Shown here: piece by piece, positions 12,066 to 27,272 of the stretch
Layout: each line of letters begins with the position of its first letter
Position numbering within the stretch: position 1 is the stretch's first letter
NCBI GenBank assembly: GCA_036500365.1
Contig: DASYCF010000189.1
Span: forward strand, 1-27,272
Length of the DNA stretch: 27,272 nt
Direction: 5' to 3'
DNA from: Byssovorax sp.
Lineage (GTDB): Bacteria > Myxococcota_A > Polyangia > Polyangiales > Polyangiaceae
The notes under the pieces: model-generated
What the model was told of the DNA's origin: nothing
Database searches by the model: none
The model's input: the letters and a program-made list of their open reading frames with translations, nothing else
Made by a program: the position numbers and the translations under genes

Positions 12066-14080
12066 TCGTGGATGACGACCAGCGTGCCCTCGCCGTTGTC
12101 CTCGTTCGCGTTCACGCCGTGCCAGCCGTCGGGCATCGGCGGATCGGTCCAGAAGAACAGCCGGTGCGCGTCGACCGGGGCGAGGTTCACGCAGCCGTGG
12201 CTCCGCGGCGTGCCGAAGACGTCGTGCCAGTAAGCGGCGTGGAGCGCATAGCCGCTCTCGAAGTACTGGATCCACGGCACGTCGCGGAGGAGGAACGTGC
12301 CCTCGCCGCGGCGCTTGGTCACGCCGTACTCGCCGTCGCCCTTGCGGGGGACGGGCTTGCCGTGCTCGCTCGGCTCCTTGTCGGCTTTGTCGACCTTCGC
12401 CTTCGAGGCGCCCTTGCCGCCGGTCGACTTGCTCGACGCGACCTTCTCGGCCTTGTCGGCCTTCTTGCCCTTCGCGTGCTTCGTCGGCTTGTCATCGTCT
12501 TCGGCGCGCGCGACGGGCTCGCTCGCGGTCTTCGAATCGGCCTTGCCGCCGACGCTCGAGCGCTCGTTCGAGTCCATCGTCGCGGTGACGTGCTTGTTCC
12601 GGATGTGGAAGACGCCGCGCACGGTGGCCGTCGTCTTCTTCGGATCGTCGAGGCCGGCCGCGCCCGTCGACACGAGCGTCGCGTAGACGGCCTTCTGGCC
12701 CTCCCACATCACGAGCGTCTGGTTCGTGATCGAGATCTCGATCCACTTCTTGCCCTGCTTCGCCTCGTCGGGCCAGGTGGCGGGCGGCACGGCGAGGCCG
12801 ACGTCCTGCGAGCTCAGCCAGTGCTTGTCGGTCGTGCGGTAGTACTTCACGCCCTCGACCGTGCGCATCGTGCCGGTGAGCCCGACCGCGCTCCGGTACT
12901 CGACCGGGTCGCTCGCGACCACCTTGCCCTTGACGATCTTGTAGCTCGTCGCGCCTTGCGAGCGCACGAACGCGAGCGGCGCGTCGAGGCCCCTGCCGAG
13001 CTCGACCCCGTGAAACGGCGAGCCCTCGTCTGGCTTGATCTTGCTCGCGGGCGCGAGGCGCATGTCGGTCGTGATGGCGAAGCGACGATCGAAGCCGTCC
13101 TCCGACGACAGGAACGAGCCGACGAGCGACAGGCCCGCGTGGCGACGCGCGCGATCGGCGAACACCTCGAAGCCCTTCGTGCGGTAGTCGCTGACGTTCG
13201 GGATCGCGCGCTTGTGACCCTCGAGCCAGAACGGCATCGCGTCGGAGTCCCCCTCGCCGCCGAGCAGCGCGCCGAGCGACAGCTCCTCCGAGTTCTTCGC
13301 GAGGCCGAGCTCGCCGAGCTTCTTGTCGGGGATGGCGACGCCGCGCGCGTCGATCGCGACGTCGTTCGCGCCGAGCGCCACCTTCGACGCGGCGGCGCCG
13401 TTGTCCTTGAACCAGTCGAGGTGCTCCTTGAGCTTGAACTCGGCCTTGAGCTGCTCGGCCGCGGTGGGCACGCGCATGTAGAGCGGGAGGACGGCGCGCA
13501 CGAACGCGTACGAGTACGGGAGCGGCGCGGCGAGGTTCGGTCGCTTCTGCGCGGCCTTGAGCAGGGGCGCGTCGAGGTCGACGGTCGCGTCGTCGCCGGC
13601 GCACACGAAGCCGCGCGGCTCGATCTGGTACCAGCCGCCCTTGCAGCCCGCGTGGCCGACGGGCTCCGCGCTCCGCGGCACCTTCGTTCCGACGCGCAGG
13701 TAGCCGAGCTTCTTCGCGGTGTCGCGCGGCTCCTTGTACACGGTGGCGACGAACGCCGTGACGCCGAGGAGCGGCTTGTCGCTCGCGTACGACGGCGTGG
13801 TCGGCGGCCGCTGCGGGTCGGCGACGGGCTCCGCGACGGCGAGGGCGCCTGCGCTCGACATCGGCGAAGCGCTCGACGCGGCGCTCGCCGACGCGGCCGG
13901 GCTCGACGCGACGTGCGTGCCCGCGATGAACGCCGCCGTCGCGACGGCCACGGAGAGCGCGCCGCCCGCGATCACGGCGCGCGACCGCGGAGCCGCCGCG
14001 ATCACGGCCCGCAACCGCGGAGCCGTCGACGACAAGCGGCGCGCCGCTGCGCTCGCGAGGACACTGAACACCCGCGCCAT
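12062..14080 (-). CDS. L,D-transpeptidase (YkuD domain at C-terminus), membrane-anchored, myxobacterial type
   Basis: KWIEISITNQTLVMWEG...YATLVSTG; DVPWIQYF; catalytic ALHAAYWHDVFGTPRSHGCVNL (His and Cys); N-terminal TM segment and Ala/Ser linker. Confidence 0.9.
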   Translation of the reverse strand: MARVFSVLASAAARRLSSTAPRLRAVIAAAPRSRAVIAGGALSVAVATAAFIAGTHVASSPAASASAASSASPMSSAGALAVAEPVADPQRPPTTPSYASDKPLLGVTAFVATVYKEPRDTAKKLGYLRVGTKVPRSAEPVGHAGCKGGWYQIEPRGFVCAGDDATVDLDAPLLKAAQKRPNLAAPLPYSYAFVRAVLPLYMRVPTAAEQLKAEFKLKEHLDWFKDNGAAASKVALGANDVAIDARGVAIPDKKLGELGLAKNSEELSLGALLGGEGDSDAMPFWLEGHKRAIPNVSDYRTKGFEVFADRARRHAGLSLVGSFLSSEDGFDRRFAITTDMRLAPASKIKPDEGSPFHGVELGRGLDAPLAFVRSQGATSYKIVKGKVVASDPVEYRSAVGLTGTMRTVEGVKYYRTTDKHWLSSQDVGLAVPPATWPDEAKQGKKWIEISITNQTLVMWEGQKAVYATLVSTGAAGLDDPKKTTATVRGVFHIRNKHVTATMDSNERSSVGGKADSKTASEPVARAEDDDKPTKHAKGKKADKAEKVASSKSTGGKGASKAKVDKADKEPSEHGKPVPRKGDGEYGVTKRRGEGTFLLRDVPWIQYFESGYALHAAYWHDVFGTPRSHGCVNLAPVDAHRLFFWTDPPMPDGWHGVNANEDNGEGTLVVIHE
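13966..14025. repeat. 30-bp tandem duplication (2 copies, 28/30 identical) in the 5' end of the L,D-transpeptidase gene
   Basis: CCGCGATCACGGCGCGCGACCGCGGAGCCG followed by CCGCGATCACGGCCCGCAACCGCGGAGCCG; encodes APRLRAVIAA / APRSRAVIAG. Confidence 0.9.
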
Positions 14081-14129
14081 TCAGCGGCGTTTCATGCCGC
14101 AGCCGTCTCCGAGAAGCAACCGCCGCGCG

Positions 14130-15815
14130 TCACTCTCCGGGCGTCACGACGGGGCGATAGCGGAACGCGTCGGTCTGCGTGAGCGCGACGAGCAGCGAGC
14201 GAATCGAGTAGTTCGACGCCTTGAACGCGCCCTGGAGCTGCACGAGCGAGCACTCGTTCGGCGTCTCGCCGCGACCGTACGCGAAGCGGAACCACTGCGT
14301 CGCGACGCAGTTCTTCACGTCTTCGCTGCCGGCGAGCCGCTGCGCGAGCTGCACCGCGCCGACGAACGGGCCGTCGCAGTCGCCCGAGTCGTACACGTCG
14401 CCCGACGCGTCGACCGGGAGGCCTTGATCCGTGGTCCGATACGCGCCGACCGCGTCGTAGTTCTCGAACCCGAAGCCGATCGGATCCATCAGGTGGTGGC
14501 ACGTCGCGCACGACGAATCGGCCGAGTGCTCCGCGTAGAGCTCGCGCGTGCTGACGCCGGCCGTGACCTGGGGCGGCGTGATGATGAGGTTGTTCGGCGG
14601 CGGCGGCAGCGGCTGGCACAGCAGACGCTCGCGGACGAACTTGCCGCGGAGGATCGGGCTCGACGTGTCGGGCTTCGCGTTGATCGTCATGATGCTCGGC
14701 TGCGTCACGAAGCCGGCGCGCTCGGTCGGGTCGAGGTCGACCTTCACGAACGACTCGCCGGTCACGCCGCGCACGCCGTAGAAGCTCGCGAGCTCCTCGT
14801 CGACGAGCGAGTACGACGCGGTGAGCATCTCGGTCACGTCGCCCTGGCCCTGGAAGACGACGTAGTCGAGGAACGCCTGCGTCTCGCGCTTCATCAGCGG
14901 AATGAGCGCCGGCGTCCACCTCGGCGAGACGTACTCCGCGTCCTTCGTCACGGTGTCGATGTCGTCGAGGCCGAGCCACTGCGTGTGGAAGTTCTCGACG
15001 GCGTCGTGCGCGCGCGGGTCGTCGAGCATGCGCGTGGCCTGCGCGGCGATTTGATCGGCCGTCTCGAGCTCGCCAGCGGCCGCCGCGGCGAAGAGCGCGT
15101 CGTCTGGCGTCGAGTTCCAGAGCATGAACGAGAGGCGCGACGCCATCTCGTAGTCGTCGAGCTGCACGACGCCGGCCGACACCTCGGTCGTCGTGCCGAA
15201 CTCGACGCGGTAGAGGAAGTGCGGCGACTGGAGCACCGCCTCGATGACCAACTGGATCGCGGACTGGAAGCCGAACGTCGGCTTGGCCGTGGTGTAGAGG
15301 TTCGTGAGGCGCGTCGTCGTCGAGTCGTCGAGCGGGCGGCGGAACGCGCGGCCCCCGAAATCGGCGATGAACTGCGCGGCGCACGCGTCCTGGCCGGTGA
15401 CGGTCACGTCGCACTTGAGGAGCGTCGGCATGTCGCGCGTCGCCCGGATGGCGATGCTTTCGGCGGCGTCGAGGTACTGCTCGGCGAGGAGCTTCGAGAC
15501 GGCGAGCGACGTCGCCTGATCGTCGAAGCCGAGCGACTGCGCCTCGGGCACCATGTCGGCGGCGGGGTTCGACGTGTCGCCGAGGAGATCGCGGATCGTG
15601 TTGTCGTACTCGGTCCGCGTGAGCCTGCGCATCGGCGCGGCGCCCGGGTTGATCCCGCCGCCGCAGTCGGCCGTCTGCGGGACGTCGACCGGGTTCGGCG
15701 GATCGCCGAGGTCGCCCGAGGTGCATCCGGCGACGACGCCGCCAGCGAGCGCCACGAAGAGCGCGACGCCCATGCCGAGCGAGGTCCGACGGTGCCTCCA
15801 ACGCTGCAAGCGCAT
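14130..15815 (-). CDS. DUF1592-family lipoprotein (DUF1587-DUF1595-DUF1592-DUF1588-DUF1585-type architecture) with a CxxCH motif
   Basis: Lipobox VVAGC; MRRLTRTEYDNTIRDLLG; RAFRRPL; VLQSPHFLYRVE; YEMASRLSFMLWNSTPDDAL; SPILRGKFVRERLLC; SCATCHHLMDPIGFGFENYDAVG. ATG 15815 has a GGAG RBS. Confidence 0.88.
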   Translation of the reverse strand: MRLQRWRHRRTSLGMGVALFVALAGGVVAGCTSGDLGDPPNPVDVPQTADCGGGINPGAAPMRRLTRTEYDNTIRDLLGDTSNPAADMVPEAQSLGFDDQATSLAVSKLLAEQYLDAAESIAIRATRDMPTLLKCDVTVTGQDACAAQFIADFGGRAFRRPLDDSTTTRLTNLYTTAKPTFGFQSAIQLVIEAVLQSPHFLYRVEFGTTTEVSAGVVQLDDYEMASRLSFMLWNSTPDDALFAAAAAGELETADQIAAQATRMLDDPRAHDAVENFHTQWLGLDDIDTVTKDAEYVSPRWTPALIPLMKRETQAFLDYVVFQGQGDVTEMLTASYSLVDEELASFYGVRGVTGESFVKVDLDPTERAGFVTQPSIMTINAKPDTSSPILRGKFVRERLLCQPLPPPPNNLIITPPQVTAGVSTRELYAEHSADSSCATCHHLMDPIGFGFENYDAVGAYRTTDQGLPVDASGDVYDSGDCDGPFVGAVQLAQRLAGSEDVKNCVATQWFRFAYGRGETPNECSLVQLQGAFKASNYSIRSLLVALTQTDAFRYRPVVTPGE

Positions 15816-15980
15816 TTCGTAAGCTCCGCGCCAGGGCGCGCAGGCCCGAGCCCGCAAAGGCTACCGCCGCGCCGACCCACCGTCGACCCCGTTCGCCTGC
15901 GCTCGGCGTCGCGACGTGAAACCTCGCGTGTTCGACCGTCGCGCGCGAAAGCTGCGACCCGATGTACTAGGCTCCGCGGC

Positions 15981-16823
15981 GTGACTTACTCCGGCGCCGC
16001 TCGCCCAGCGGCCCTCGGCGCGATCGCGAGCGCGCTCGCCTTCGCCGCGGCCACCGCGTCGCTCGCCCGGCCCGCCGAAGCGGACGAGCCGGCGCGCGAG
16101 AAGAACGCGGTCGGCACCGAGCTCTTCGAGTTCGGCCTCGCGATGGCCGCCGGGGGACGACGCTTCACGTACTCGGATCCGGTTTCGGCGAACATCCGCG
16201 ACTACAGCGTGTTCGGCGCGGTGATGCCCGAGCTCCACCTCGCGTTCTACCCTGCCGCGGACACCGGGATCACGTTCGCGCGCGACGTCGGCTTCGAGCT
16301 CACGGCGACGAGCGCGTTCGGCCTGTCGTCGCAGTCGAGCGACGGAACCAGCGTCGGCAGCTCGTACGATCGCCTCGACGCGATGGTGCGCGCGCGGTTC
16401 TTTCCGGCGGGCCGGACCGGCACGTCGCTCGGCCTCGCGGGCGGCGCGTCGCTGCTGCGGTTCTCGTACGACGCGAGCGGCTCGCTGGCCGACCAGGTGC
16501 CGGGCGCCGCGTACGAATCGCTCCGCCTCGCCGGCGACGCGCGAGCGCCGATCGGCCGCGGCGCGCTGACGATCGCGATCGCGTACGACGCGCCGCTCAC
16601 GGCGGGCGACGTATACGACCGCTTCACCGGCTCGACCGTAGGTGGGATCGACGTGCGCCTCGGCGCGTCGTTCCTCGTCGGCGCGGGCGTCGAGGTGCGC
16701 GCGGCCGCGTCGTACACGCGCTTCTTCTATGCGTTCGCGCCCGTCCCCGGTGACACCTACGTGGCGGGCGGCGCCCTCGACGAGTTCTTCGGCCTGTCGC
16801 TCGGAGCTGCGTATGCGTACTGA
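15981..16823 (+). CDS. Putative outer-membrane beta-barrel protein (about 10 strands), unknown function
   Basis: Sec-type signal peptide ending AEA; about 10 alternating amphipathic strands (ELFEFGLAMAAG, VGFELTATSAFG, GVEVRAAASYTRFFY); C-terminal aromatic beta-signal GLSLGAAYAY. This is the tail of track ORF 13719..16823; the GTG 15981 start is inferred. Confidence 0.7.
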   Translation: MTYSGAARPAALGAIASALAFAAATASLARPAEADEPAREKNAVGTELFEFGLAMAAGGRRFTYSDPVSANIRDYSVFGAVMPELHLAFYPAADTGITFARDVGFELTATSAFGLSSQSSDGTSVGSSYDRLDAMVRARFFPAGRTGTSLGLAGGASLLRFSYDASGSLADQVPGAAYESLRLAGDARAPIGRGALTIAIAYDAPLTAGDVYDRFTGSTVGGIDVRLGASFLVGAGVEVRAAASYTRFFYAFAPVPGDTYVAGGALDEFFGLSLGAAYAY

Positions 16824-17541
16824 TCCGGCGCGCTCGAGCCTCCGCCTGCGCGCCGTCGCGGCGGCGCTCGCGGCCCTCGGCGCAGGCGCGTCGCTCGCGG
16901 GCTGCCCCGGCACGCTCGACGACAAAGGCGCGTTCCTGCACCCGGACGGGAGCGACTGCCCCGACGTGCCGTCGACGATCTTCATCCCGAACTGCGCGAC
17001 CGCCCCGGGGTGCCACTCCGCCGCCGATCGCATGCAGGGCCTCGACCTCGCGTCGCCGAACGTGGCCGCGCGCGTCGTCAACCAGCCCGCGAAGGAGTGC
17101 GTGCCCGGCATCCTCGCCGACCCCGCGAACCCGTCGCAGAGCATCCTCTATTTGAAGCTGTTCCAGCCGGCGCCGTGCGGCTCGCAGATGCCCCTCGGCG
17201 CCGACCCGCTGAGCGACACGCAGATCGCGTGCGTCGAGACGTGGATCCAGGATCAAGGCGCGGGCGGCAGCGGCGTCGGCGGATCGGGCGGAGCCGGCGG
17301 CGCGACGGGGGTGGGCGGCGCGGCGCAGTCCGGATCAGGCGGCGCGGGCGGCGCAGGCGGGACCGCAGCGGGCGGCGGCGGCGCAGGTGGTCTCGGAGGC
17401 ACTGCGCCGACCGGAGGTGGCGGCTCCGCGAGCAGCGGCGCCGCGAGCGCGTCGGGCGGCGCCGGTCTCGGCGGCGCGAGCGCGACCGGCACATCGGGTG
17501 GCGCAGGTCGCGGTGGCGCGGGCGGCGGCGGCGGCGCGTGA
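16813..17541 (+). CDS. Lipoprotein with atypical CX5CH cytochrome-c-like domain and Gly/Ala/Ser-rich tail
   Basis: Canonical lipobox SLAGC; CATAPGCH (16993-17016); distal GSQMPLG; WI at domain end; about 94-aa Gly-rich tail. ATG 16813 has a GGAG RBS and overlaps the beta-barrel gene by 11 nt. Confidence 0.7.
   Translation: MRTDPARSSLRLRAVAAALAALGAGASLAGCPGTLDDKGAFLHPDGSDCPDVPSTIFIPNCATAPGCHSAADRMQGLDLASPNVAARVVNQPAKECVPGILADPANPSQSILYLKLFQPAPCGSQMPLGADPLSDTQIACVETWIQDQGAGGSGVGGSGGAGGATGVGGAAQSGSGGAGGAGGTAAGGGGAGGLGGTAPTGGGGSASSGAASASGGAGLGGASATGTSGGAGRGGAGGGGGA
17257..17538 (+). repeat. Low-complexity Gly/Ala/Ser/Thr (GGC-rich) coding repeat
   Basis: GAGGSGVGGSGGAGGATGVGG...GGGGGA running to the stop codon. 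Confidence 0.9.
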
Positions 17542-17542
17542 C

Positions 17543-17558
17543 GCCGGGGCGCCCCGGC
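17543..17558. terminator. Perfect 16-bp palindrome GCCGGGGCGCCCCGGC just after a stop codon; possible terminator or RNA stabiliser without a U-tract
   Basis: Self-complementary; starts 1 nt after the TGA ending at 17541; no poly-T. Confidence 0.35.
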
Positions 17559-17573
17559 TGAAGGCTCGCGCCG

Positions 17574-19868
17574 ATGCGACTCCGGCTGCGATCGTTCGCG
17601 CTCGCGGCGCTGCCCGTCCTCTACGTCGCCGCGGTCTCCGTGCAGCAGACGGGCGGCAGCGCGCTCGCGTTCGCCATGCTCGGAGGCCTCCCGCTCGCGC
17701 TCCTCTTCGCCTGGTCGCGCACGGCGCCGCCGGTGCGAGGCGTCGATCGAACCGACGGGGTCGCGCGAACCGGGGCGCGCGTCGCGTTCACGGGCGCGGC
17801 GCTGGTCTGCGCCGCGCGGACGGGCACCGGCGGCGCAGGGTTCCTCGCCGCAGAGAACCTCGGCGCCGCGCTCGCGGCGACCGGCGGCCTCGTCGCGTTC
17901 TCGCGTGTGCAGGGACCGGGCGGCCTGGTCGACGCGTCGCCGCGGCCACGGAGGCTCGACGCCGCCGCGTTCGGCTCGCTGCTCTGGGCGGTCGCGATCG
18001 CGCTGCCTGCGGCGCAGATCGCGGCGCCGGACCGCGCGCAGGGGCTCGACCCGCGCTGGCTCGACTACGGCGTCGTCGCGGCGTCGCTCGCGTCGCTCGG
18101 CGTGATGCTCGCCTCGACCGCGCTCGTGCTCGTGCAGAAGCGCCTCGAGCTCGGCGCCGCCGACCGCGCCGGCGCTGCGTTCTCGCTCGCGCTGACGGCG
18201 CTGCTCGTCGGCGTGCTCGCGGCGGTGACGGGCGTGGCGCCGGCCGAGCGCCTGCTCCCGCTCGCGTGCGCGTGCGCCGGCGTCGCGCTGGCGGCGAGCG
18301 CGGTCGCGCGGGAGGCCGACGCGCTCGCACAGGCGAACCGCGTCACGCTCGCCGCCGCCGCGCTCGTCGCGCCGCTCGCCCTCTTCGCGGGGTACGTCGC
18401 GCGCGTGGCGCCGAAGCGGAGCGCGGCCACGGTCGCCGTCGCCGTCGCCGCGGCGTCGCTTGCGGGGATGATCGCGCCGATCCTCGGACGGCGCCTCTTC
18501 GCGCCGGCCGCGGGGCGGTGGCTCTCCGCGCTCGACGCCGCGACGCGCGCCGCGATGACGCCCGATCCCGAGGCCGCGCTCGAGGCTGCGCTGCTCGCGC
18601 TGCGCGCCGCCGCGGGCCAGCGCGGCAAGGACCCGGCGCTCTATTTCGTGGGCGTCCCCGAGGTCGTCACCGTCGACCGGGCCGGGTACGCGCGGCGGGA
18701 GCGCGCGGAGCCGCCGCCGCGCCTCGTCGAGCTGGCGGCCGAGGAGCCCGAGGGCGTGCTGCGGCTCGAGGTGCTGCGCGCGGTGCTCGTGCGCAGGCCC
18801 GACGTGCGCCCGCTCGAGGCGTGGCTCGATCAGCGCGGCTTCTCGGCGCTCGCGCTCGTTCGCGACGACGCGGGGCCGATCGGACTGCTCGCCATCCCGG
18901 CTGGCTCACGTCGCCGCGCGTGGACGCTCGAGGAGGCGCGCGCGCTGCGCCGGCTCGCGGATCGTCTCGGCGCGGTGATCGGCGCGTCGGCGCTCCTCGC
19001 GAGGTCGCGCGCGCGTGAGCTCGAGGTGCGCGGCGAGCTGGCGAACGCGCGGACCCAGATCACGGAGCACGCCGCGGCGCGCGCCCGCGACGCGACACGC
19101 CACCGCGCCGCCGCCGAGGCGCTCGCGCGGCGAGCGCGCCTCGCGTCGTACAGCCCCGCCGCACGCGCGGCGCGCGAGGCCATCGAGCGGCTCGCCGAGC
19201 GCGGCCGACCGATCGCGCTGTTGTCCGCGCCCGGCATCGACGCGTCGACGTGGGCAGCGGCGGCGCACCTCGCGTCGGCGCGCCGCGACGGTCCGCTGGT
19301 CGTCGTCGCGGGGACCCGCGTCGCGGAGCACGGCCTCGATCGATGGCGCGACCCCGCCGCGTCGCCGCTCGCGGCCGCGGAGACGGGCACGCTCGTGCTC
19401 CTCGACGCGCAGGCGCTCCCGCTCGACGTGCAGCGCTACGTCGCGGCGTCGCTGGGGGACTCGACCGGCCTCGTCGTCTCGCTCCGCGCGACGGTCGACG
19501 CGCTCGTCGCCGCCGACGCGCTCGGCGAAGAGCTCGCGGATCGGCTCGGCGATCGCGCCGTCGCGCTGCCGCCGCTCGCCGCCCGCGCCGAGGACCTGCG
19601 CGCGCTCACGCTCGAGATCCTGGCCGAGCTCTCGATCACGCTCGGCGCGCGGGCCGTCGGCCTCGACGCGATGGCCCTCGCGGTCCTGCTCGAGCACGAG
19701 TTCCCGGGCAACGACGCCGAGCTCGCGGCGGTGCTCGTCCGCGCCGCGCTCGCAGCGCGAGGGGACGCGATCACCCGGGCCGACCTCGAGCGCGCAGGGT
19801 TCACGGCGGCGGCCGAGCTGTCTCCACACCCGCGGCGCGCGTCGAGCAGGCCCCCGCGCGCGCGCTGA
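17574..19868 (+). CDS. Polytopic membrane protein with a GAF-like middle region and a degenerate sigma54-activator-type AAA+ domain, no HTH
   Basis: First 310 or so aa contain about 9-10 hydrophobic helices. The C-terminal part is collinear with enhancer-binding AAA+ domains: YSPAARAAREAIERLA, GPLVVV, GTLVLLDA, ELADRL, LPPLAARAEDL, EFPGNDAEL. Confidence 0.7.
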   Translation: MRLRLRSFALAALPVLYVAAVSVQQTGGSALAFAMLGGLPLALLFAWSRTAPPVRGVDRTDGVARTGARVAFTGAALVCAARTGTGGAGFLAAENLGAALAATGGLVAFSRVQGPGGLVDASPRPRRLDAAAFGSLLWAVAIALPAAQIAAPDRAQGLDPRWLDYGVVAASLASLGVMLASTALVLVQKRLELGAADRAGAAFSLALTALLVGVLAAVTGVAPAERLLPLACACAGVALAASAVAREADALAQANRVTLAAAALVAPLALFAGYVARVAPKRSAATVAVAVAAASLAGMIAPILGRRLFAPAAGRWLSALDAATRAAMTPDPEAALEAALLALRAAAGQRGKDPALYFVGVPEVVTVDRAGYARRERAEPPPRLVELAAEEPEGVLRLEVLRAVLVRRPDVRPLEAWLDQRGFSALALVRDDAGPIGLLAIPAGSRRRAWTLEEARALRRLADRLGAVIGASALLARSRARELEVRGELANARTQITEHAAARARDATRHRAAAEALARRARLASYSPAARAAREAIERLAERGRPIALLSAPGIDASTWAAAAHLASARRDGPLVVVAGTRVAEHGLDRWRDPAASPLAAAETGTLVLLDAQALPLDVQRYVAASLGDSTGLVVSLRATVDALVAADALGEELADRLGDRAVALPPLAARAEDLRALTLEILAELSITLGARAVGLDAMALAVLLEHEFPGNDAELAAVLVRAALAARGDAITRADLERAGFTAAAELSPHPRRASSRPPRAR

Positions 19869-19878
19869 CGAGGTCGGC

Positions 19879-20784
19879 TCAGGCGCGCTGCGCCGGGCGC
19901 CCCTCCGCGAGCTTGAAGCCCGCCGACACCTCGCTCGCGAACGACTCGACGAGCCGCCGCGCCGCCGCCCTCGCGTCGGGGATGCCCTTCGCGGCGCGCG
20001 CGAGCACGGCCATCGCCGCTGGCCCCGGCTGGCGCGCCATGGCGCGGTACGCGAGCGATCGGCCGGGGGCGACCGCGATCAGCGCGAGCGTCGACGCCGA
20101 CCACGCGAACTGCGGCGTCGCGCGCGTGGCCGTGGCGATGTCCGTCAGCGGCGAGCGCGTGAGCCAGAGGGCGAGCGCGGCCTCGAACTCGTCCGCCGAG
20201 AGCGCGCCGATGCCCGCCGCCATGCTGCCGAGCGTCACCTTGCGCGAGTCGACCGTCACCTGGCGGAGCGACGGCCACGCGAGCAGGCGCGGCGGGGCCG
20301 GCTGGCCGCGAAAGCGCGCCGAGCCCGTCCACCACGCGACCGTCGAGTCGGTGCGCACGACGTCGAGCGTGCGCGCGAAGGTCGCGTGCCGCGCGAGCGC
20401 CGAGCCCACGTCGCGCGGCGGCGGCACGCGCTCGCACACGGCGACGACGTTCGCGACGAGGCGCCGGTGTCGCCCGCGCGTGAGCGGCCCTGCGAGCTCG
20501 TGGTTCGTCGCCTGCAGCAGGTCGTTGAGCGCGGCGACGAGCGCGAACGACGACGCGTCGACCGGCTTCACGGTGTCGACCGGCGCGAGGAGCCGCGCGC
20601 GGCGGACCCGCGCGACGTCGAGCGCGAGCCGCAGCTCGAGGTTCGCGAGCTCGCGGCCCTTCGCGAACTTGAGCGCGAGCGTCGCGCCGAACGGCCGCGT
20701 GAGGTGCAGCTCACCGCCGAGCACGAGCGGCCCGAGCACGTGCTCCGCGAGCTCTTCGAAGCGCTCCGCGAGCTCGTCGCTCAA
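19879..20784 (-). CDS. Hypothetical protein (301 aa), possibly an FtsH-ternary-system (fvmX-like) component
   Basis: TTG start overlaps the upstream stop (TTGA, 20784-20781); typical codon bias; aromatic/Arg motif ARHATFAR...VAWWTGSARFRGQPAPPRLLAWP. The family resemblance is from recollection only. Confidence 0.6.
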   Translation of the reverse strand: MSDELAERFEELAEHVLGPLVLGGELHLTRPFGATLALKFAKGRELANLELRLALDVARVRRARLLAPVDTVKPVDASSFALVAALNDLLQATNHELAGPLTRGRHRRLVANVVAVCERVPPPRDVGSALARHATFARTLDVVRTDSTVAWWTGSARFRGQPAPPRLLAWPSLRQVTVDSRKVTLGSMAAGIGALSADEFEAALALWLTRSPLTDIATATRATPQFAWSASTLALIAVAPGRSLAYRAMARQPGPAAMAVLARAAKGIPDARAAARRLVESFASEVSAGFKLAEGRPAQRA

Positions 20785-22307
20785 CGACCCGCCCCGCTGT
20801 CGGCCGGCGCGTCGGGCTTGGGCAACGCAGCGGGGCTCGGCAGGTCGCGCATCGGCCGGATGCCGACGCCCTCGAGCATGAGCTCCGAGATCTCGGTCGC
20901 GAGCGCGGCCTCGAGGCCGGTCGACGTCGCGTCGAGCGGCGCCCACGCCTGCGCCTCGAGCAGCGCGGTCTCGAGCGGGACGAACGCGTCGCTCGGGATG
21001 CCGATCGCGCGCCCGTCGCGGCCGATGAAGAGCACGCGCCCAGACGGCGAGCCGAGCGCGCGATAGAGCACCTCGGGCGCGACCGCGGGCACGGCGTCGT
21101 AGCCGGCCGGGATGTAGAGCCCGGCGCGGAGCTCGCGGAAGAACTCGCCCACGGGGATGCCCTCGATGCCCGTCGGGTGCCGGAGGAAGACGCCCTGCGC
21201 GGTGAGCGCGACCTCGGCGCGGCGGAGCGTCTCGGGCCCGAGCGCGTACGCGACCTGGCGGAGGAGCGGCATCTCCTCGGGCCGAATCCAGCTCGCCGTG
21301 ACCGACCGCCACGGCTCCGACGTCGGAAAGAGGCGCAGCGCGAGCGAGACGGACCCCGGCTTGGCGAGCGCCGGCGACCCGCGCGCCGTGGCGACGTCTT
21401 GCCTGAGCTCGACGCGCGCGAACGCCGCGACGTCGCCGAGCGCAGGCAGCTTCGGCAGCTCGAGGACGTCTTGACCGCCGCCGCGAAAGAGCACGAGCCC
21501 TGCCTCGTTGAACACGGGGCACGCGCGGAGGTTCACCGGGTGCCGGTGCCCGGACTCGACCGCCGCGCCCGGCGCCACGGGCAGGAACACGCCGAGGCCC
21601 GGCGTGTGAGAGAGCAGCGGCAGCATGCGCTCCGGCACCTCCGGCACGCGGAACACGTAGCGAACGACGGGCGCGTCGTCGAAGCTCGACGTGGGCGGCC
21701 ACTCGGCGACGCCGACCTCGGCGTCGACCTGCGAGCGCACGAAATAGTGGATCAGCGCAGGCCCGAGCCCGGCCTCGGCGACGATCCAGCGCTGGCCCGG
21801 CTCCCGCGCCGTCGACGGATCGGGGTGCGGCTCGAGCCGCAGGAGGAGCGCGCGGACCTCGATCTTCCGCTCGACGTCGTACACCTGCGAAAAGGCGTTG
21901 TGATAGAGCGCGAGCGCGGCGTCGCTCGCGGTGATCTGCGCGATGTCGTAGCCGAAGGGCGCCGCGGCGTCGCGATACTGGACGAAGTGGCGGCTCGTCC
22001 CCGTGAAGGTGTACCCGCCCGCGAGGCGCGCGACCTCGGCGACGCGATCCATGCGATCGCTGCTCTCGGCGCCGAACGTGAGCGTGACCTCGCGCGCGCC
22101 GAGCTTGGACTTCACGACGTCGACGGACAGCGAGCGCAGGATGTCCGCGAGCGAGCCCTGGCGCGTGTAGAGCGCGAGGAACGCGACCAGGCGGTCGATC
22201 GACGGGAGGAGCACGAGGCCCTTGGCGCCGAGCGCGACGCCCTTCGCCTCGAGGCCGAGGCCGGGCGTGCGGAGCCGCGTCTGATGGACCGCGACTCGAT
22301 CGAGCAT
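20781..22307 (-). CDS. Hypothetical soluble protein (508 aa), possibly an FtsH-ternary-system (fvmX-like) component
   Basis: Balanced globular composition, strong codon bias, coupled to the downstream gene, no signal peptide or TM segment. The CDS is well supported; the function is not. Confidence 0.65.
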   Translation of the reverse strand: MLDRVAVHQTRLRTPGLGLEAKGVALGAKGLVLLPSIDRLVAFLALYTRQGSLADILRSLSVDVVKSKLGAREVTLTFGAESSDRMDRVAEVARLAGGYTFTGTSRHFVQYRDAAAPFGYDIAQITASDAALALYHNAFSQVYDVERKIEVRALLLRLEPHPDPSTAREPGQRWIVAEAGLGPALIHYFVRSQVDAEVGVAEWPPTSSFDDAPVVRYVFRVPEVPERMLPLLSHTPGLGVFLPVAPGAAVESGHRHPVNLRACPVFNEAGLVLFRGGGQDVLELPKLPALGDVAAFARVELRQDVATARGSPALAKPGSVSLALRLFPTSEPWRSVTASWIRPEEMPLLRQVAYALGPETLRRAEVALTAQGVFLRHPTGIEGIPVGEFFRELRAGLYIPAGYDAVPAVAPEVLYRALGSPSGRVLFIGRDGRAIGIPSDAFVPLETALLEAQAWAPLDATSTGLEAALATEISELMLEGVGIRPMRDLPSPAALPKPDAPADSGAGR

Positions 22308-22331
22308 CGGCGCTTGCCCCGCGCGCGCCGG

Positions 22332-22589
22332 CTACTTGTACATCTCGTCGAGGATCTCGTCCTCGCGGCCCTGCTTGATCAGCCGGTCGTGGCGGAACCC
22401 CTCGTCGAGCGAGAGGTAGGTGAAGAACAGGATGATCGGGATCAGGCCGGCGATGGGCATGTTGTCGCCCTTGCCCACGATCGCGAGGATGTACTCCCAC
22501 CCGTCCCAGCTCTTGCTCGACTCGTACCAGACGACCCCGGCGAGGATCGTGGCGAAGATCACGACGAAGAGACCGCGGTGCCGCTGCAT
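22332..22589 (-). CDS. Small 2-TM membrane protein resembling the N-terminal module of cytochrome bc subunit IV-like proteins
   Basis: Non-shadow composition (W, Y, I, F, K rich); motif AIVGKGDNMPIAGLIPIILFFTYLSLDEGFRHDRLIKQG; near-consensus promoter directly upstream. Confidence 0.65.
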   Translation of the reverse strand: MQRHRGLFVVIFATILAGVVWYESSKSWDGWEYILAIVGKGDNMPIAGLIPIILFFTYLSLDEGFRHDRLIKQGREDEILDEMYK

Positions 22590-22595
22590 GCGCGC

Positions 22596-22624
22596 ACCCT
22601 AGAAGCCCGCCCGAGGCCAGTCAA
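22596..22624 (-). promoter_or_regulatory. Sigma70-type promoter giving a leaderless mRNA
   Basis: TTGACT (22624-22619), 17-nt spacer, TAGGGT (22601-22596), 6 nt, then ATG at 22589, so +1 falls on the A of the start codon. No Shine-Dalgarno. Confidence 0.75.
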
Positions 22625-22736
22625 GCCCGTGATCCCCGGAGCATCCGCGGCCGGCGCTGCGTGTCGCACATGAGAGCACCTCGGCGACGTCGCAGTACCT
22701 TGTGGGCGCGTTCGGCGGCACGCGCAACTTCGCGCA

Positions 22737-22766
22737 TTGACCCACAAAACCGCAGCGTGATAGCTC
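22737..22766 (+). promoter_or_regulatory. Possible sigma70-type promoter of the 22830 operon
   Basis: TTGACC at 22737-22742, 18 nt, then TAGCTC preceded by TG(A); AT-richer patch. The -10 element lacks the conserved final T. A strong GGAGG RBS follows at 22818-22822. Confidence 0.3.
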
Positions 22767-22829
22767 TATTCCTCAGGGTGGATTCGGTCGTTCCCTGACC
22801 CCCTCACGCCGCGCCTCGGAGGTTGTCCG

Positions 22830-25160
22830 ATGACCCGTCATTTGCGTCGCGCTCTCGGTGGTCGTGCGTCCCTCGGCGCGCTGCTCGTCGCGATCTCGTT
22901 CGGCGGCCTCGGCGGCTGCTCCTCGGGGACCGACACGGCGAGCACCGACGGCGATGCCAACGGCGCTCAATGCCAGACGACGAAGGACTTCTTCGAGACG
23001 GAGGTCTGGAGCCCGTTCATGGGTCAGGTCTGTTACGACTGCCACGGTCCAGGCGGCAAGGCGCAGCAGCAGAACGCCAAGTTCCTCCTCCAGCCGGCCG
23101 CGTCGCCCGATTTCATCGACCAGAACCTCGCCAACATCAAGACGGTCATCTCGTACGAGTTCAACGGAGTCCCCGAGATCCTCGTCAAGCCCGTCGGCGG
23201 CGCGAACCACGGCGGCGGCGCCGTCATCTCGGCAGACGGTCCCGAGATCCAGGCGCTGACGCAGCTCGTCCAGAAGATCCAGCAGGGGGACGGCGGCTGC
23301 GTCGAGGCGCCGAACTCCACGATCGCCGCCGTGAAGCTCCTCGGCCCGACCGACACGTTCCGCAAGGCGGCGCTCGATCTCGGCGGACGCCTCCCCACGG
23401 CGACGGAGACTGCCGCCATCGCGAAGGGCGGCGACGCGGCGCTCGACACGGCCCTCGACGAGCTGATGACGGAGGACACGTTCCTCCAGCGCCTCCGCGA
23501 GATCTGGGGCGACATCCTCCTCACCGACAAATACTACCTGTCGTACAGCGGCGCCGCGATCGACTCGCTCAACGAGCAGACGATGTACCCGGCGCTCGCT
23601 CCCTACAAGGATCCCAACAACCCGAAGTACATGGATCCGAATCGGCCGCTCATCAACCAGGCCATCGCGCAGGAGCCGCTGAACCTCATCGCCTACATCG
23701 TGAAGAACGAGCTGCCATTCACCGACGTCGCGGCCGCCGACTACACGGTGGTGAACCCGTTCCTCGCGACCGCGTACGGCGTGACGGACGTCCAGTTCAC
23801 GGATCCGACCGATTACAATGAATGGCACCCGGCGCACGTCACCCTCGGGACCGGGACCGCGCTCCCGCACGCGGGCATCCTGTCGACGCCGGTGTTCTTG
23901 AACCGCTGGCAGACGACGCCGACGAACCGCGACCGCGGCCGCGCGCGCCGCGTGCTCCTGTTCCTCCTCGCGACCGACATCCTCCAGATCGCGACGCGGC
24001 CCATCGATCCCACGGCGATCACGCAGGACGACAACCCCACCCTCGACGACCCGCTGTGCACGGTCTGCCACACGATCATCGACCCGCTCGCGGGCGGCTT
24101 CCGCGGATACGACCCGTACGACTACGAGTCGTTCGATCCGGACGTCGCGATCAGCGGCTGGTACACCGACATGGCGCCGACGGGATACGACGGCACGAAC
24201 ATGGATCCGTCGCAGTACGCGACCGCGCTGCCCTGGCTCGCGTCGCAGGTCGCCGCGGACCCGCGCTTCATCACCAACGCGGTGAACGTCATCTACACCG
24301 GATTCACGGGCCGCACGCCGATCCTCTATCCGCAAGACAACACGGATCCGAACTTCGTGTCGAACCTCGCCGCCTGGACGGCGCAGGACGCGTTCCTCAC
24401 CGCGACGGGCCAGGCCTTCACGAAGTCGCACATGAACCTGAAGACGATCGTGAAGGCCGTCGTGAAGAGCGCGTATTACCGCGGCTCCGCGGCGGGCAGC
24501 TCGACCGCGGATCCCGTGCTGCTGACCGACGTGGGCGGCGGCCGCCTGCTCACGCCGGAGATGCTCTCGCGCAAGGTGTCCGCCGTCGTCGGCTTCTCGT
24601 GGCACCCGAACTGGGACGCGACGCACGACTACCTCGCTCAGGACTACCGCATCACGTACGGCGGCATCGACTGCGACTCGGTGACGACGCGCCTCACGAC
24701 GCCGAACGGCATCATGTCCGCCGTGCAGTCGCGCCTGGCGAGCGAGATGGCCTGCCACGCGACGGCGTTCGATTTCACGAAGCCCGCGGCCGATCGCCTG
24801 CTCTTCCCGAACGTCGAGCTCGCCGAGGTGCCCGAGTCCGCCGGCAACACGGTCTCGGGCTCGGTCGACGACATCAAGGCGAACATCGTCTACCTGCACC
24901 AGCAGATCCTCGGAGAGACGCTGAGCACGGACGACCCGGAGGTGCAGCGCACCTATCAGGTCTTCCTCGACACGTGGCACGAGCTCTCCGAGAGCGGCGT
25001 GACCAGCGTGAACTGGGAGTGCGAAGGCCGGTGGGACTGGACCGACGACTCCGATCTGTCGGACGACGTGATCATCAGCGACGACCAGAACTTCACGATG
25101 CGCTCGTGGCAGGCGGTGGTCACCTACCTCCTGTCCGACTACTCGTTCCTCTACCAATAG
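22830..25160 (+). CDS. Large acidic lipoprotein, DUF1588/DUF1592-related, with two CxxCH heme-binding motifs
   Basis: Lipobox GLGGC; CYDCH (23031-23045) in an N-terminal cytochrome-like domain (NHGGG); FRKAALDLGGRLPT; HAGILSTPVFLNRWQTTPTNRDRGRAR; CTVCH (24057-24071) followed by IIDPLA; ends YLLSDYSFLYQ; GGAGG RBS. Confidence 0.82.
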   Translation: MTRHLRRALGGRASLGALLVAISFGGLGGCSSGTDTASTDGDANGAQCQTTKDFFETEVWSPFMGQVCYDCHGPGGKAQQQNAKFLLQPAASPDFIDQNLANIKTVISYEFNGVPEILVKPVGGANHGGGAVISADGPEIQALTQLVQKIQQGDGGCVEAPNSTIAAVKLLGPTDTFRKAALDLGGRLPTATETAAIAKGGDAALDTALDELMTEDTFLQRLREIWGDILLTDKYYLSYSGAAIDSLNEQTMYPALAPYKDPNNPKYMDPNRPLINQAIAQEPLNLIAYIVKNELPFTDVAAADYTVVNPFLATAYGVTDVQFTDPTDYNEWHPAHVTLGTGTALPHAGILSTPVFLNRWQTTPTNRDRGRARRVLLFLLATDILQIATRPIDPTAITQDDNPTLDDPLCTVCHTIIDPLAGGFRGYDPYDYESFDPDVAISGWYTDMAPTGYDGTNMDPSQYATALPWLASQVAADPRFITNAVNVIYTGFTGRTPILYPQDNTDPNFVSNLAAWTAQDAFLTATGQAFTKSHMNLKTIVKAVVKSAYYRGSAAGSSTADPVLLTDVGGGRLLTPEMLSRKVSAVVGFSWHPNWDATHDYLAQDYRITYGGIDCDSVTTRLTTPNGIMSAVQSRLASEMACHATAFDFTKPAADRLLFPNVELAEVPESAGNTVSGSVDDIKANIVYLHQQILGETLSTDDPEVQRTYQVFLDTWHELSESGVTSVNWECEGRWDWTDDSDLSDDVIISDDQNFTMRSWQAVVTYLLSDYSFLYQ

Positions 25161-25199
25161 GCCGACGAACCGAACTCGGAATCGAGGAGCAACAGCGCC

Positions 25200-26546
25200 A
25201 TGGATCGACGCCGCTTCGTTCAGCTCGCAGGTCTCGCAGGTCTCGGCTTCATCGCCCCGGTCGGCCTCAAGGTCAGCCGCGCGGACTCCGGCAAATACGG
25301 GGGTCCGTACTTCATCATGGTCGACGCGAACGGCGGGTGGGATCCGACGTTCTGCTGCGATCCCAAGGGTGGAGACATCGACCGTCCGTACACCGTCGGT
25401 CAGATCGGGACGGCCGGCAACATCCACTACGCGCCGATCTCCGGCGTGACGTCGCAGAGCGAGACCTTCTACACGAACCAGGCGTTCTTCGAGAAGTACT
25501 ACTCCCGCCTCATGATCCTGAACGGCGTCGACACGGAGACGAACAACCACGACAGCGGCACGCGGACCACGTGGTCCGGGCAGCTCGACGAGGGGTATCC
25601 GTCGTTCGGCGCGCTCGCCGCCGCGGTCGCGCTCGAGAAGCTCAACGTGCCGCTCGCGTTCCTCAGCGCCGGCGGGTACGACGCGACCGAGGGCGTCTGT
25701 TCGTTGAGCCGCGTCGGCGATCCCGACGTCGTCGAGAAGCTCGCGTACACGAACACGATCAACCCGGGCGACACGGCGAACGCGACCGAGTACTACAACA
25801 CGCCGACGACCGCGGCGCGCATCGCCGCGGCGCAGGCTGCGCGCCTCCAGGCGAAGCGGGACAAGCAGAGCCTGCCCGCGCCGAAGGCGGCGATGAGCTC
25901 GCTCTTCCTCACGCGGAGCGGGAGCTCGGGGCTCGGCGAGCTCGCGCAGGAGCTCGCCACGACGCCGCTGCTCTCTCCCACCGATCTGCCCGATCTGGCG
26001 CACATCCAGGACACGAACTCGCTCAACGATCTCAAGAGCGTGATTCAGCAGGCGCAGCTCGCCGTGCTCGCCTTCCAGGCCGGCGTCGCCGTGAGCGCGA
26101 ACTTGAACATCACCGGCTTCGACACGCACTCGAACCACGACGCGAATCAATCGCACCAGATGGCGTCGCTGCTGCGTGGGCTCGCGTTCCTGTTCGATCT
26201 CCTCGACTCGACCGGCCTCGCCGACAAGACGTACGTCATCGTGGGATCGGACTTCGGTCGCACGCCGACGTACAACGCAGACGGCGCGGGCGGCGGCAAG
26301 GACCACTGGAACATCACGAGCATGATGCTCGCGGGACCCACCGTGCAGGGCAACCTCGTGATCGGCGGCACGGACTCCGCCCAGGTGTCCACGACCGTCA
26401 ACGAGCAGCTCCAACCGGACTCGGGCGGCTTCCGCGTGACGACGCCGCTCATCCACGTCGCGCTGCGAAAGCTCGCGGGCGTGACCGGGACGGCCAACGA
26501 TCTCGCCTTCCCGCTCGCGGGCGACGTGCTGCCGTTCTTCGGCTGA
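25200..26546 (+). CDS. DUF1501 domain protein with twin-arginine (Tat) signal peptide
   Basis: MDRRRFVQLAGLAG; GGWDP; GFDTHSNH; VGSDFGRTP; GKDHW; GAGGAG RBS; typical partner position downstream of a DUF1588-type lipoprotein. Confidence 0.88.
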   Translation: MDRRRFVQLAGLAGLGFIAPVGLKVSRADSGKYGGPYFIMVDANGGWDPTFCCDPKGGDIDRPYTVGQIGTAGNIHYAPISGVTSQSETFYTNQAFFEKYYSRLMILNGVDTETNNHDSGTRTTWSGQLDEGYPSFGALAAAVALEKLNVPLAFLSAGGYDATEGVCSLSRVGDPDVVEKLAYTNTINPGDTANATEYYNTPTTAARIAAAQAARLQAKRDKQSLPAPKAAMSSLFLTRSGSSGLGELAQELATTPLLSPTDLPDLAHIQDTNSLNDLKSVIQQAQLAVLAFQAGVAVSANLNITGFDTHSNHDANQSHQMASLLRGLAFLFDLLDSTGLADKTYVIVGSDFGRTPTYNADGAGGGKDHWNITSMMLAGPTVQGNLVIGGTDSAQVSTTVNEQLQPDSGGFRVTTPLIHVALRKLAGVTGTANDLAFPLAGDVLPFFG

Positions 26547-26576: not shown

Positions 26577-26643
26577 GACGAGCGTACGCTGGCCTCGTGG
26601 TGGCACGCTCGCATGACTTGGTCTTCGAGGGACGGGCGATGGA

Positions 26644-27272
26644 ATGGACGCGCTGAGCGAGCCGCTCCTCGCCGGTCGATTCCGGCTCGAGCGCGAGGTC
26701 GGACGCGGCGGGGCCGGCATCGTCTATCGAGCGTCCGACGCGCTGAGCAAGCTCGACGTCGCGATCAAGATCATCGCCTCGATCGGAGGCGTCGACGCCG
26801 TCGAGCACTCGCGGTTCACCCGCGAAGGCCAGCTCCTCGCCGAGCTCGATCACCCCGGCATCGTCCGCGTCGTCGCGTTCGGCGCCCTCGACGCCCAGTA
26901 CACCGACAAGCTGGGCAGGCGCCTCGAAGAAGGCGCCCCCTACATCGCGATGGAGTGGCTCGAGGGCGAGGACCTCCAGGCGCGCCAGCGCCGCGCCCCG
27001 CTCGGCCTGCCCGACGCGCTGGAGGTCGGCCGCCAGGTCGCCGCGGCGCTCGCCGCCGCGCACCAGGCGGGCATCGTGCATCGCGACATCAAGCCGTCGA
27101 ACATCTTCCTCATCGGCGCCGGCGCCGTGAGCGATCCGCCGACGTCCGGCGTGACGACGCACCGCCCCGCCGGCGCGGCGGACATCCGCACGAAGCTGGT
27201 CGATTTCGGCGTGGCAGCGACGAACGACGTGCGCCTCACGCGGACGGGCGCCGTCGTCGGAACGCCCGCGTA
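26644..27272 (+). CDS. Hanks-type Ser/Thr protein kinase, 5' part (runs off the window; absent from the ORF track)
   Basis: My translation from ATG 26644: MDALSEPLLAGRFRLEREVGRGGAGIVYRA...VAIK...RFTREG...LDHPGIVRV...PYIAMEWLEG...GIVHRDIKPSNIFL...KLVDFG...GTPA. Confidence 0.95.
   Translation, partial: MDALSEPLLAGRFRLEREVGRGGAGIVYRASDALSKLDVAIKIIASIGGVDAVEHSRFTREGQLLAELDHPGIVRVVAFGALDAQYTDKLGRRLEEGAPYIAMEWLEGEDLQARQRRAPLGLPDALEVGRQVAAALAAAHQAGIVHRDIKPSNIFLIGAGAVSDPPTSGVTTHRPAGAADIRTKLVDFGVAATNDVRLTRTGAVVGTPA

Follow-up and report, generated by a model that had tools for sequence, protein, structure and literature searches.

Whether the genes at positions 14,130 to 26,546 of contig DASYCF010000189.1 of Byssovorax sp. 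(assembly GCA_036500365.1) encode one electron-transfer chain or several separate systems is the question raised by this locus, which lies in a stretch of 27,272 nt that was analyzed as a whole and is called the window below. An initial annotation had suggested that products of these genes, of which there are nine, named A to I here, could make up one envelope chain for electron transfer or oxidative substrate processing that reaches from inner membrane to cell surface. Our analysis of sequences, predicted structures, and gene order indicated that the region is probably a mosaic of three independently conserved units and not one chain, with units 1 and 3 being PSCyt/PSD modules with a twin-arginine translocation (Tat) enzyme and unit 2 unrelated to them. 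Unit 1 would consist of gene A and a myxobacterial accessory pair, B-C, with the DUF1552 gene lost; unit 3 would be the H-I pair; and unit 2 (D, E, F, and G) would lie between the two heme modules only through the local gene order of this lineage.

The genome (G000 in our sample) is a metagenome-assembled genome (MAG) of 1423 contigs that is 76% complete, and linkage was compared across 40 relatives and a 120-genome sample of the family. Synteny was based on tblastn matches and not on gene calls made from GC content at third codon positions (GC3), because some genes, B and C of the window among them, were overlooked or made too long by the GC3-based caller. The base composition of the window was about 72% GC, so that shadow frames were abundant in lists of open reading frames (ORFs), and genes were defined from GC3, frame plots, and family searches. 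The region contained the following features (TM, transmembrane).

A, 14130-15815, minus strand: lipoprotein with DUF1587/1595/1592/1588/1585 (PSD3-PSD5-PSD4-PSCyt3-PSD2; five Pfam models) and the motif CATCH
B, 15981-16823, plus strand: small beta-barrel of the outer membrane (280 aa); signal peptide present, C terminus AYAY
C, 16813-17541, plus strand: small lipoprotein whose domain resembles class I cytochrome c and is followed by a Gly-rich tail
D, 17574-19868, plus strand: polytopic membrane protein, its AAA+ and lid domain being of sigma54 type and degenerate
E, 19879-20784, minus strand: cytoplasmic protein of about 301 aa, function unassigned
F, 20781-22307, minus strand: cytoplasmic protein of 508 aa, highly conserved, single-copy
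G, 22332-22589, minus strand: protein of 85 aa with two TM segments
H, 22830-25160, plus strand: lipoprotein of 776 aa, divergent PSCyt/PSD superfamily, with CYDCH and CTVCH
I, 25200-26546, plus strand: Tat-signal DUF1501 protein
Gap between the stop of A and the start of the YkuD gene, 14081-14129: 49 nt, with a Tat DUF1552 gene at this place in G101

The genes were arranged in four transcription units, A (minus), B-C-D (plus), G-F-E (minus), and H-I (plus), in agreement with the initial annotation, and a 427-aa minus-strand ORF at 15861-17144 was rejected as a shadow of B and C. Scans of the region for Rfam families, promoters, and terminators gave nothing useful. Most of the individual features annotated initially were reproduced as well. 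The three lipoproteins with four heme-type motifs had the lipoboxes VAGC (A), LAGC (C), and LGGC (H), and each motif was invariant within its own family; the outer-membrane barrel coupled to a small lipoprotein corresponded to B and C, whose genes overlapped by 11 nt and of which B gave barrel matches in the ESM Atlas; the Tat-signal DUF1501 protein was I (91.4 bits against a cut-off of 27, with the motif RRRF); and the membrane pseudo-ATPase was D, with about eight hydrophobic segments followed by a degenerate AAA+ and lid region. For G, the small protein said to resemble a bc subunit, the size and the two TM segments were confirmed, and the resemblance to bc components could not be reproduced, as described below. 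The features were thus real, and the interpretation unifying them was only partly right.

Linkage of the genes in relatives

The H-I pair is a conserved, self-contained two-gene unit. Orthologues of H were found in 12 of the 40 relatives, with I directly downstream and co-oriented in 12 of 12, and the same adjacency was present in Minicystis rosea, among unrelated neighbors, and in G121, G101, and G113. A metagenome protein of 1334 aa (P0068) was considered as a natural H-I fusion and rejected as a read-through of the H stop, its linker being the intergenic region and the Tat signal being left internal. Since it is a gene-call or sequence artifact, P0068 does not count as Rosetta-stone evidence.

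B and C were adjacent or one gene apart in approximately 20 loci of relatives, and an A-type gene lay beside B-C in G005, G019, G021, G034, G013, G036, G020, G001, and G101, in at least four orders (B-C-A, A|B-C, A-DUF1552-B-C, and C-x-B-A). Because each such genome has only 2-18 PSD4 genes, the chance of finding one within 8 kb was about 0.3-3% per locus, an estimate that uses the per-genome PSD4 counts only, and the association of A with B-C was far beyond chance.

The gene following A was DUF1552 in all eight A/B-C loci checked (seven by clustering and one in G101), with Pfam identity as DUF1552 shown directly for three of these loci; in the relatives it was a Tat-type gene translationally coupled to A. 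The gene order in the complete genome G101 was D<C<B|A>DUF1552>YkuD>phosphorylase, and the window had the same order except that DUF1552 was gone, with the YkuD gene starting 49 nt after A. The PSCyt3 gene A here therefore stood without the immediately downstream DUF1552 gene (PF07586) that defines the module. No DUF1552 remnant was found in the window by tblastn, and PF07586 had no match in the G000 assembly, compared with 14, 6, and 19 in three relatives. This genome has lost the DUF1552 gene expected after A, and the rest of the unit is intact. Neither this usual partner of A nor its loss had been mentioned in the initial annotation.

From the conservation of D and F and their placement away from the heme genes, D, E, F, and G appear to form a separate conserved block with predicted cytoplasmic or inner-membrane products that is unlinked to heme genes elsewhere. 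D was present in 39 of 41 relatives, usually near F and not near B-C or H-I, and the two genes were convergent on the same contig and a few kb apart in G008, G022, G019, G021, and G005. F was about 80% identical in G005 and G003 and was found in 23 of 41 genomes, mostly off the contigs with H-I; G accompanied F only in G005 and G003. F and G were approximately 80% identical to their nearest relatives, whereas H and I were about 52% identical. The position of E between D and F was confirmed here and in G005 only, the copy next to F in G005 being 54% identical. E is coupled to F by a TTGA overlap, and neither protein had a signal peptide or a TM segment.

The family searches and PADLOC gave no match for E, and the sole family signal of F was bpX2 at 21 bits, below the cut-off of 23.6. 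Membership of E and F in a MoxR-vWA ternary system or a defense system was considered and rejected, since only the sub-threshold bpX2 match was found and PADLOC returned nothing. G had no match in Pfam, NCBIfam, or PADLOC; the Atlas contained only its own cluster of 146 members from Myxococcota; and comparison by tblastn with PetD-type ORFs at five bc loci (G000, G005, and G006) gave matches at chance level, with a best E value of 0.25. From these results, the assignment of G to a bc-related module was rejected. The same window encodes an intact sigma54 activator, to whose AAA+ and lid domains the C-terminal region of D could be aligned, and the defects of D were read from this alignment: the Walker A motif was SAPGIDAS without Lys, the GAFTGA region was deleted, and both the Glu of Walker B and the Arg of sensor II were lost, with the lid domain retained (Pfam). 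D thus differs from sigma54 enhancer-binding proteins in the absence of these key motifs and of a helix-turn-helix domain, and in the fusion to a polytopic membrane domain. No redox motif was found in D.

Of the genomes in the 120-genome sample, 55 contained H and 52 contained B, with 35 having both, and H-I was located within 25 kb of B-C in only four of the 35 (G000, G005, G019, and G121). The distance in G101 was 44 kb, and G040, from another family, added one more co-location. Closeness of H-I to B-C exceeds random expectation, yet it is the exception, and the whole A-to-I order was kept only in G005, the closest relative, with an insertion of 14.7 kb. Conserved linkage was accordingly observed for H-I, B-C, and A/B-C, and not, as a rule, between the D-E-F-G block and the heme genes or between H-I and B-C. 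In G019, the co-oriented genes within 12 kb were H and I, then one for a copper monooxygenase of PHM-like type, and then A, DUF1552, B, and C. The stretch between H-I and A-DUF1552-B-C (L015:5020-7110, G019:C73) contains the monooxygenase gene (PHM/DBH-like, Cu2_monoox_C) and, between it and I in the reverse orientation, the gene of a TetR regulator, which hints at an oxidative context for this supercluster.

The stretch 9432-14080 contains an alpha-glucan phosphorylase gene (DUF3417 and Phosphorylase) and a YkuD L,D-transpeptidase gene for 672 aa, syntenic with G101, and a YkuD homologue also occurs 3 kb from H-I in G023 (L017). In BLAST comparisons, the gene after I (26613-27272) fell into one group with genes of relatives for Ser/Thr protein kinases, which have a Pkinase domain in L032 and L047; kinase genes of this type are common in myxobacteria, and their neighborhood to I was not conserved.

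The exported proteins and their motifs

H gave weak matches to PSD4 (23.1 bits against a cut-off of 23.3) and PSCyt2 (19.3 against 29.8) in Pfam, and its sequence resembled PSD4 and PSCyt3 more closely than it did PSCyt2 and PSD1. It had 577 homologues, mostly from Polyangiaceae. In 67 aligned homologues, numbered as the ORF of the window minus 4 (H123 is H127 of the ORF), C64/C67/H68 and C406/C409/H410 were invariant, as were H123, C638, and C727, and C44, C153, H343, M444, and H686 were nearly so. Residues 20-173 matched the N-terminal part of the RoxC model of NCBIfam (E value of 3.9e-7, 28.6 bits), and this cytochrome-like N-terminal domain, to which CYDCH and H127 belong, weakly resembled PccH and FoxE. 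The AlphaFold2 (AF2) model of H (pLDDT 89.7, pTM 0.89) had no convincing fold match in the PDB by Foldseek or VIA-align. It did match clusters of the AlphaFold database annotated as DUF1588, DUF1549, DUF1553, and 'cytochrome c domain', with E values of 1e-19 to 1e-43 for DUF1588 and DUF1549. H is a hybrid subfamily, a divergent member of the PSCyt/PSD superfamily.

In I, R3 and R4 of the Tat motif were nearly invariant, and D48, D54, D111, T114, H117, D308, H310, D351, D368, and H369 were invariant. No PDB sequence was matched by phmmer or a profile search, and some DUF1501 clusters of the Atlas also matched Phosphodiest. Because of this overlap and the invariant Asp/His/Thr pattern, the Tat partner I looks like a metalloenzyme of the phosphatase superfamily and not like a redox enzyme. 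If the Tat partners are phosphatase-like, a redox chain would be only one of several possible chemistries.

The five domains of A occurred in order, all above their gathering cut-offs (78.9, 78.0, 148.4, 112.6, and 57.1 bits), and with Met15 of the ORF taken as the start, the n-region is positively charged and precedes VAGC, as read from the sequence. C450, C453, and H454 were kept in nine of nine aligned homologues. This CxxCH lies at the PSCyt3/PSD2 junction, and in an alignment it shared the pattern C-x-x-C-H-x-x-x-D-P-x-G with the second motif of H.

B starts with GTG at 15981, and because its ESM Atlas model matched the OMP_b-brl, OpcA, and omptin clusters (TM 0.70-0.82) it was taken to be a small outer-membrane barrel. 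C starts with ATG at 16813, inside B, and is predicted to be translationally coupled to it. The motif of C is CATAPGCH, a CX5CH followed by G-x-x-M-P, and the two Cys, the His, and Met-Pro (M100-P101) were invariant in 23 homologues. Databases were searched for homologues with the domain alone as the query, since the Gly-rich tail swamped a search with full-length C. The spacing among 56 database clusters was CX4CH in 50, CX5CH in six, and CXXCH in none, so that the CX5CH of C, which has one inserted residue relative to CX4CH, is a minor form that recurs within a family whose motif is itself non-canonical, and differs from the canonical spacing. As modeled by AF2 (pLDDT 85.6), the C domain had the layout of class I cytochrome c, with an N-terminal helix, the Cys...Cys-His motif, a Met-Pro loop, and a C-terminal helix. 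When it was compared with 48,161 PDB chains in a scan independent of Foldseek, the top 50 matches were mostly c-type cytochromes, led by FoxE (Z 5.7) and followed by YhjA, c6A, c-556, PccH, SoxAX, c552, MtoD, and others. The enrichment of c-type cytochromes among the matches of this predicted structure was striking, and the single scores were weak. PSCyt1 of Pfam was matched weakly by 10 of the 23 family members, and the C-family profile gave a suggestive probability of 33% against the N-terminal domain of H.

C therefore shares its modeled topology with class I c-type cytochromes (FoxE, PccH, c6, and c552) and differs from them in the CX4CH/CX5CH motif of its family, its lipid anchor, and its extra conserved cysteines; by sequence, the similarity to PSCyt1 is marginal. 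The translational coupling of a barrel gene to the gene of a heme-motif protein recalls the porin-cytochrome conduits (MtrAB/MtrC and PioAB). However, a barrel of more than 20 strands around a multiheme cytochrome, as in the MtrAB type, was not found in B-C: B resembles the 10-strand OpcA/omptin barrels and at 280 aa is too small to sheathe a cytochrome, and C has one motif and not ten. By these features, B-C is not a member of the group.

Three C-like cytochrome-fold domains occurred in tandem, apparently within larger ORFs, at L046:8437-10523 (G037:C12) and L047:8539-10608 (G025:C12), adjoining DUF1592-type genes, so that the mini-cytochrome exists also in a multi-domain form. The second B-C pair of G005 was preceded by a 784-aa protein with a weak match to DUF1800 (L029:4246-6600, G005:C66); DUF1800 is another family that pairs with DUF1501. 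A protein identical to C (P0122) was recorded on three contigs, the longest of which (45,891 bases) exceeds the window, and the same or a near-identical organism is probably available in a better assembly.

Heme binding and alternative readings

CXXCH motifs in exported proteins were found in A (one) and H (two), both with lipoprotein signal peptides. From their conservation, the motifs in A, C, and H are not chance occurrences, and the three are plausible c-type heme proteins. Heme binding is plausible for C and the N-terminal domain of H in particular, because of the invariant motifs, the cytochrome-like fold predicted for C, and the PSCyt1 and RoxC matches. RoxCs are lipoproteins, and many of them carry at the N terminus an additional domain with CxxCH; after purification, RoxCs give heme spectra of the c type (PMC10837239). 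It is this extra domain of the tri-heme, rubber-oxygenase-related proteins that residues 20-173 of H resemble; the match is confined to the N terminus and has 28.6 bits against a family cut-off of 900, and the rest of H is unrelated to the MauG/CCP-like catalytic domain of Rox proteins. As for the Ccm/Res (cytochrome c maturation) genes, whose presence the initial annotation had proposed as a check, CcmF- and CcmC-type genes were present in the genome and no ResB was found in the assembly.

Several points weigh against the reading of three units with two heme modules. The second CxxCH of H and the CxxCH of A lie in a helical core without a solved structural relative, and a metal or disulfide role is possible for both. 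To our knowledge, heme has yet to be demonstrated in any protein of these families, none of which has an assigned activity, and we know of no proven Ccm substrate with CX5CH. The individual Z scores of the C model were low, at most 5.7. Since the MAG is 76% complete, the DUF1552 gene could sit in an unassembled part of the genome. Finally, H-I was near B-C or A more often than random in five genomes (G000, G005, G019, G121, and G040), and because of this co-location functional cross-talk between units 1 and 3 is possible.

One alternative is that the two modules have merged functionally in this genome after the loss of DUF1552, with the DUF1501 enzyme I serving both A and H and with B-C as a shared barrel and cytochrome accessory at the outer membrane. 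This was judged unlikely. B-C lay directly upstream of H-I in G040 and G121, neither of which has an A gene there, and the supercluster of G019 joins all of the components. A remained intact, with high GC3 and its motif, despite the absence of DUF1552 from the assembly, and the N-terminal regions of DUF1552 and DUF1501 are related (hhalign, 81%). However, H-I and B were not within 25 kb of each other in 31 of the 35 family genomes with both, and partner swapping has no direct support. Because H is homologous to A and I to DUF1552, the occasional clustering may instead reflect neighborhoods of paralogues.

An alternative with similarly little weight is that the Cys/His motifs are metal or disulfide sites and that the modules are hydrolytic systems for nutrient scavenging or envelope maintenance, in which a Tat enzyme of phosphatase or sulfatase fold would work with a large substrate-binding lipoprotein. 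The overlap of DUF1501 with Phosphodiest and the Asp/His/Thr pattern of I, which is typical of metal-dependent phosphoesterases, fit this proposal, as do the cores of H and A, which are not cytochrome-like, and the carbohydrate-binding modules and neighboring sulfatases noted by He 2017 (PMC5615132). It agrees poorly with the class I cytochrome c fold of C, which has an invariant Met-Pro where it is expected, with the relation of the N-terminal domain of H to PSCyt1 and the RoxC heme domain, and with the absolute invariance of C-x-x-C-H, His included, which is typical of heme attachment sites.

That A, B, and C are a decaying, non-functional remnant after the loss of the enzyme partner appeared highly improbable. 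DUF1552 was gone without trace, with none in the assembly compared with 6-19 in relatives, and C has an inserted residue in its motif; nevertheless, all three ORFs were intact with GC3 of 0.92-0.95 (0.95 in A), every invariant residue was kept, and the CX5CH variant is tolerated in its family (6 of 56 clusters). The least probable reading, a single electron-transfer chain of all nine genes from the inner membrane (D and G) to the cell surface, was largely refuted by synteny, which gave three units: against the co-location within 12 kb, the order preserved around the insertion in G005, and the co-orientation of B-C-D with a 33-nt gap between C and D (likewise co-oriented in G018 and G101) stood the occurrence of H-I alone in Minicystis, G023, G014, and many others, the conservation of D and F far beyond the heme genes and mostly on other contigs, the cytoplasmic nature of E and F, a dead AAA+ protein in D, a G that is not bc-like, and the lack of any quinol-oxidising or cytochrome b component in the region.

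Relation to known modules and significance

The PSCyt and PSD domains were reportedly defined in Rhodopirellula by Studholme in 2004, and the function of PSCyt/PSD pairs with DUF1501 or DUF1552 has been an open question since then. The conserved pairs of PSCyt2/PSD1 with DUF1501, and of PSCyt3/PSD with a second family, have been described as targeted to the membrane or the periplasm, perhaps transferring electrons, and functionally uncharacterized (Kamneva 2012, PMC3542564; He 2017, PMC5615132). A resembles the PSCyt3/PSD2-5 proteins paired with DUF1552 in its five domains and the invariant CxxCH of the family, and differs in its missing partner and in being a lipoprotein without a fused cytochrome or carbohydrate-binding domain; a barrel and a mini-cytochrome flanking the pair are not described in the papers on these pairs. 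H-I resembles the pairs of PSCyt1/PSCyt2/PSD1 with a Tat DUF1501 protein (PMC3542564) in being a conserved combination of a CxxCH protein and a Tat DUF1501 protein, and in the match of the H model to the DUF1549 and DUF1553 clusters. It differs in that H belongs to a hybrid subfamily below both Pfam cut-offs and is a lipoprotein with two invariant CxxCH motifs. With respect to H-I, the initial annotation repeats the proposal of electron transport and unknown function in Kamneva 2012 (PMC3542564).

On the favored reading of three separate units, units 1 and 3 would share a design in which a large periplasmic lipoprotein that is all-alpha and carries an invariant CxxCH is combined with a Tat-exported DUF1552 or DUF1501 enzyme. 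A, C, and H would be exported by Sec and lipidated, and heme would be attached to them covalently by the Ccm system of the genome; I would be folded in the cytoplasm, probably with a metal, before export by Tat. A complex of H and I may then act on an envelope or imported substrate. C may provide in trans the PSCyt1-type cytochrome domain that H has in cis, and B may anchor the module at the outer membrane or let the substrate in. Candidate chemistries are electron transfer coupled to the phosphatase-fold enzyme, or heme in a sensory or structural role.

The window does not contribute a new type of respiratory chain. The class of module is already known and unsolved, and pairs of PSCyt/PSD with DUF1501 or DUF1552 are among the largest functionally unsolved families of Planctomycetes, Verrucomicrobia, and some Myxococcota. 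The interest of the locus rests on three additions: a well-populated hybrid subfamily, H with DUF1501, which has a confident model and no solved structural relative; a myxobacterial accessory pair of a small barrel and a cytochrome-fold lipoprotein with CX4CH/CX5CH, which travels with either kind of pair; and a natural example of a module that has lost its Tat enzyme gene and is otherwise intact. Genomes with one or two modules, and not dozens, are practical for testing heme binding, complexes, and substrate. A bolder proposal, to which we give a low probability, is that B-C is a generic accessory for outer-membrane docking and electron entry that can serve either kind of PSCyt/Tat-enzyme pair, and that A, B, C, H, and I, in this genome without DUF1552, make up one heme-dependent outer-membrane machine for an extracellular or envelope substrate. 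If this were true, the low-copy myxobacterial lineage would be a minimal model for the large PSCyt/DUF1501/DUF1552 families of planctomycetes.

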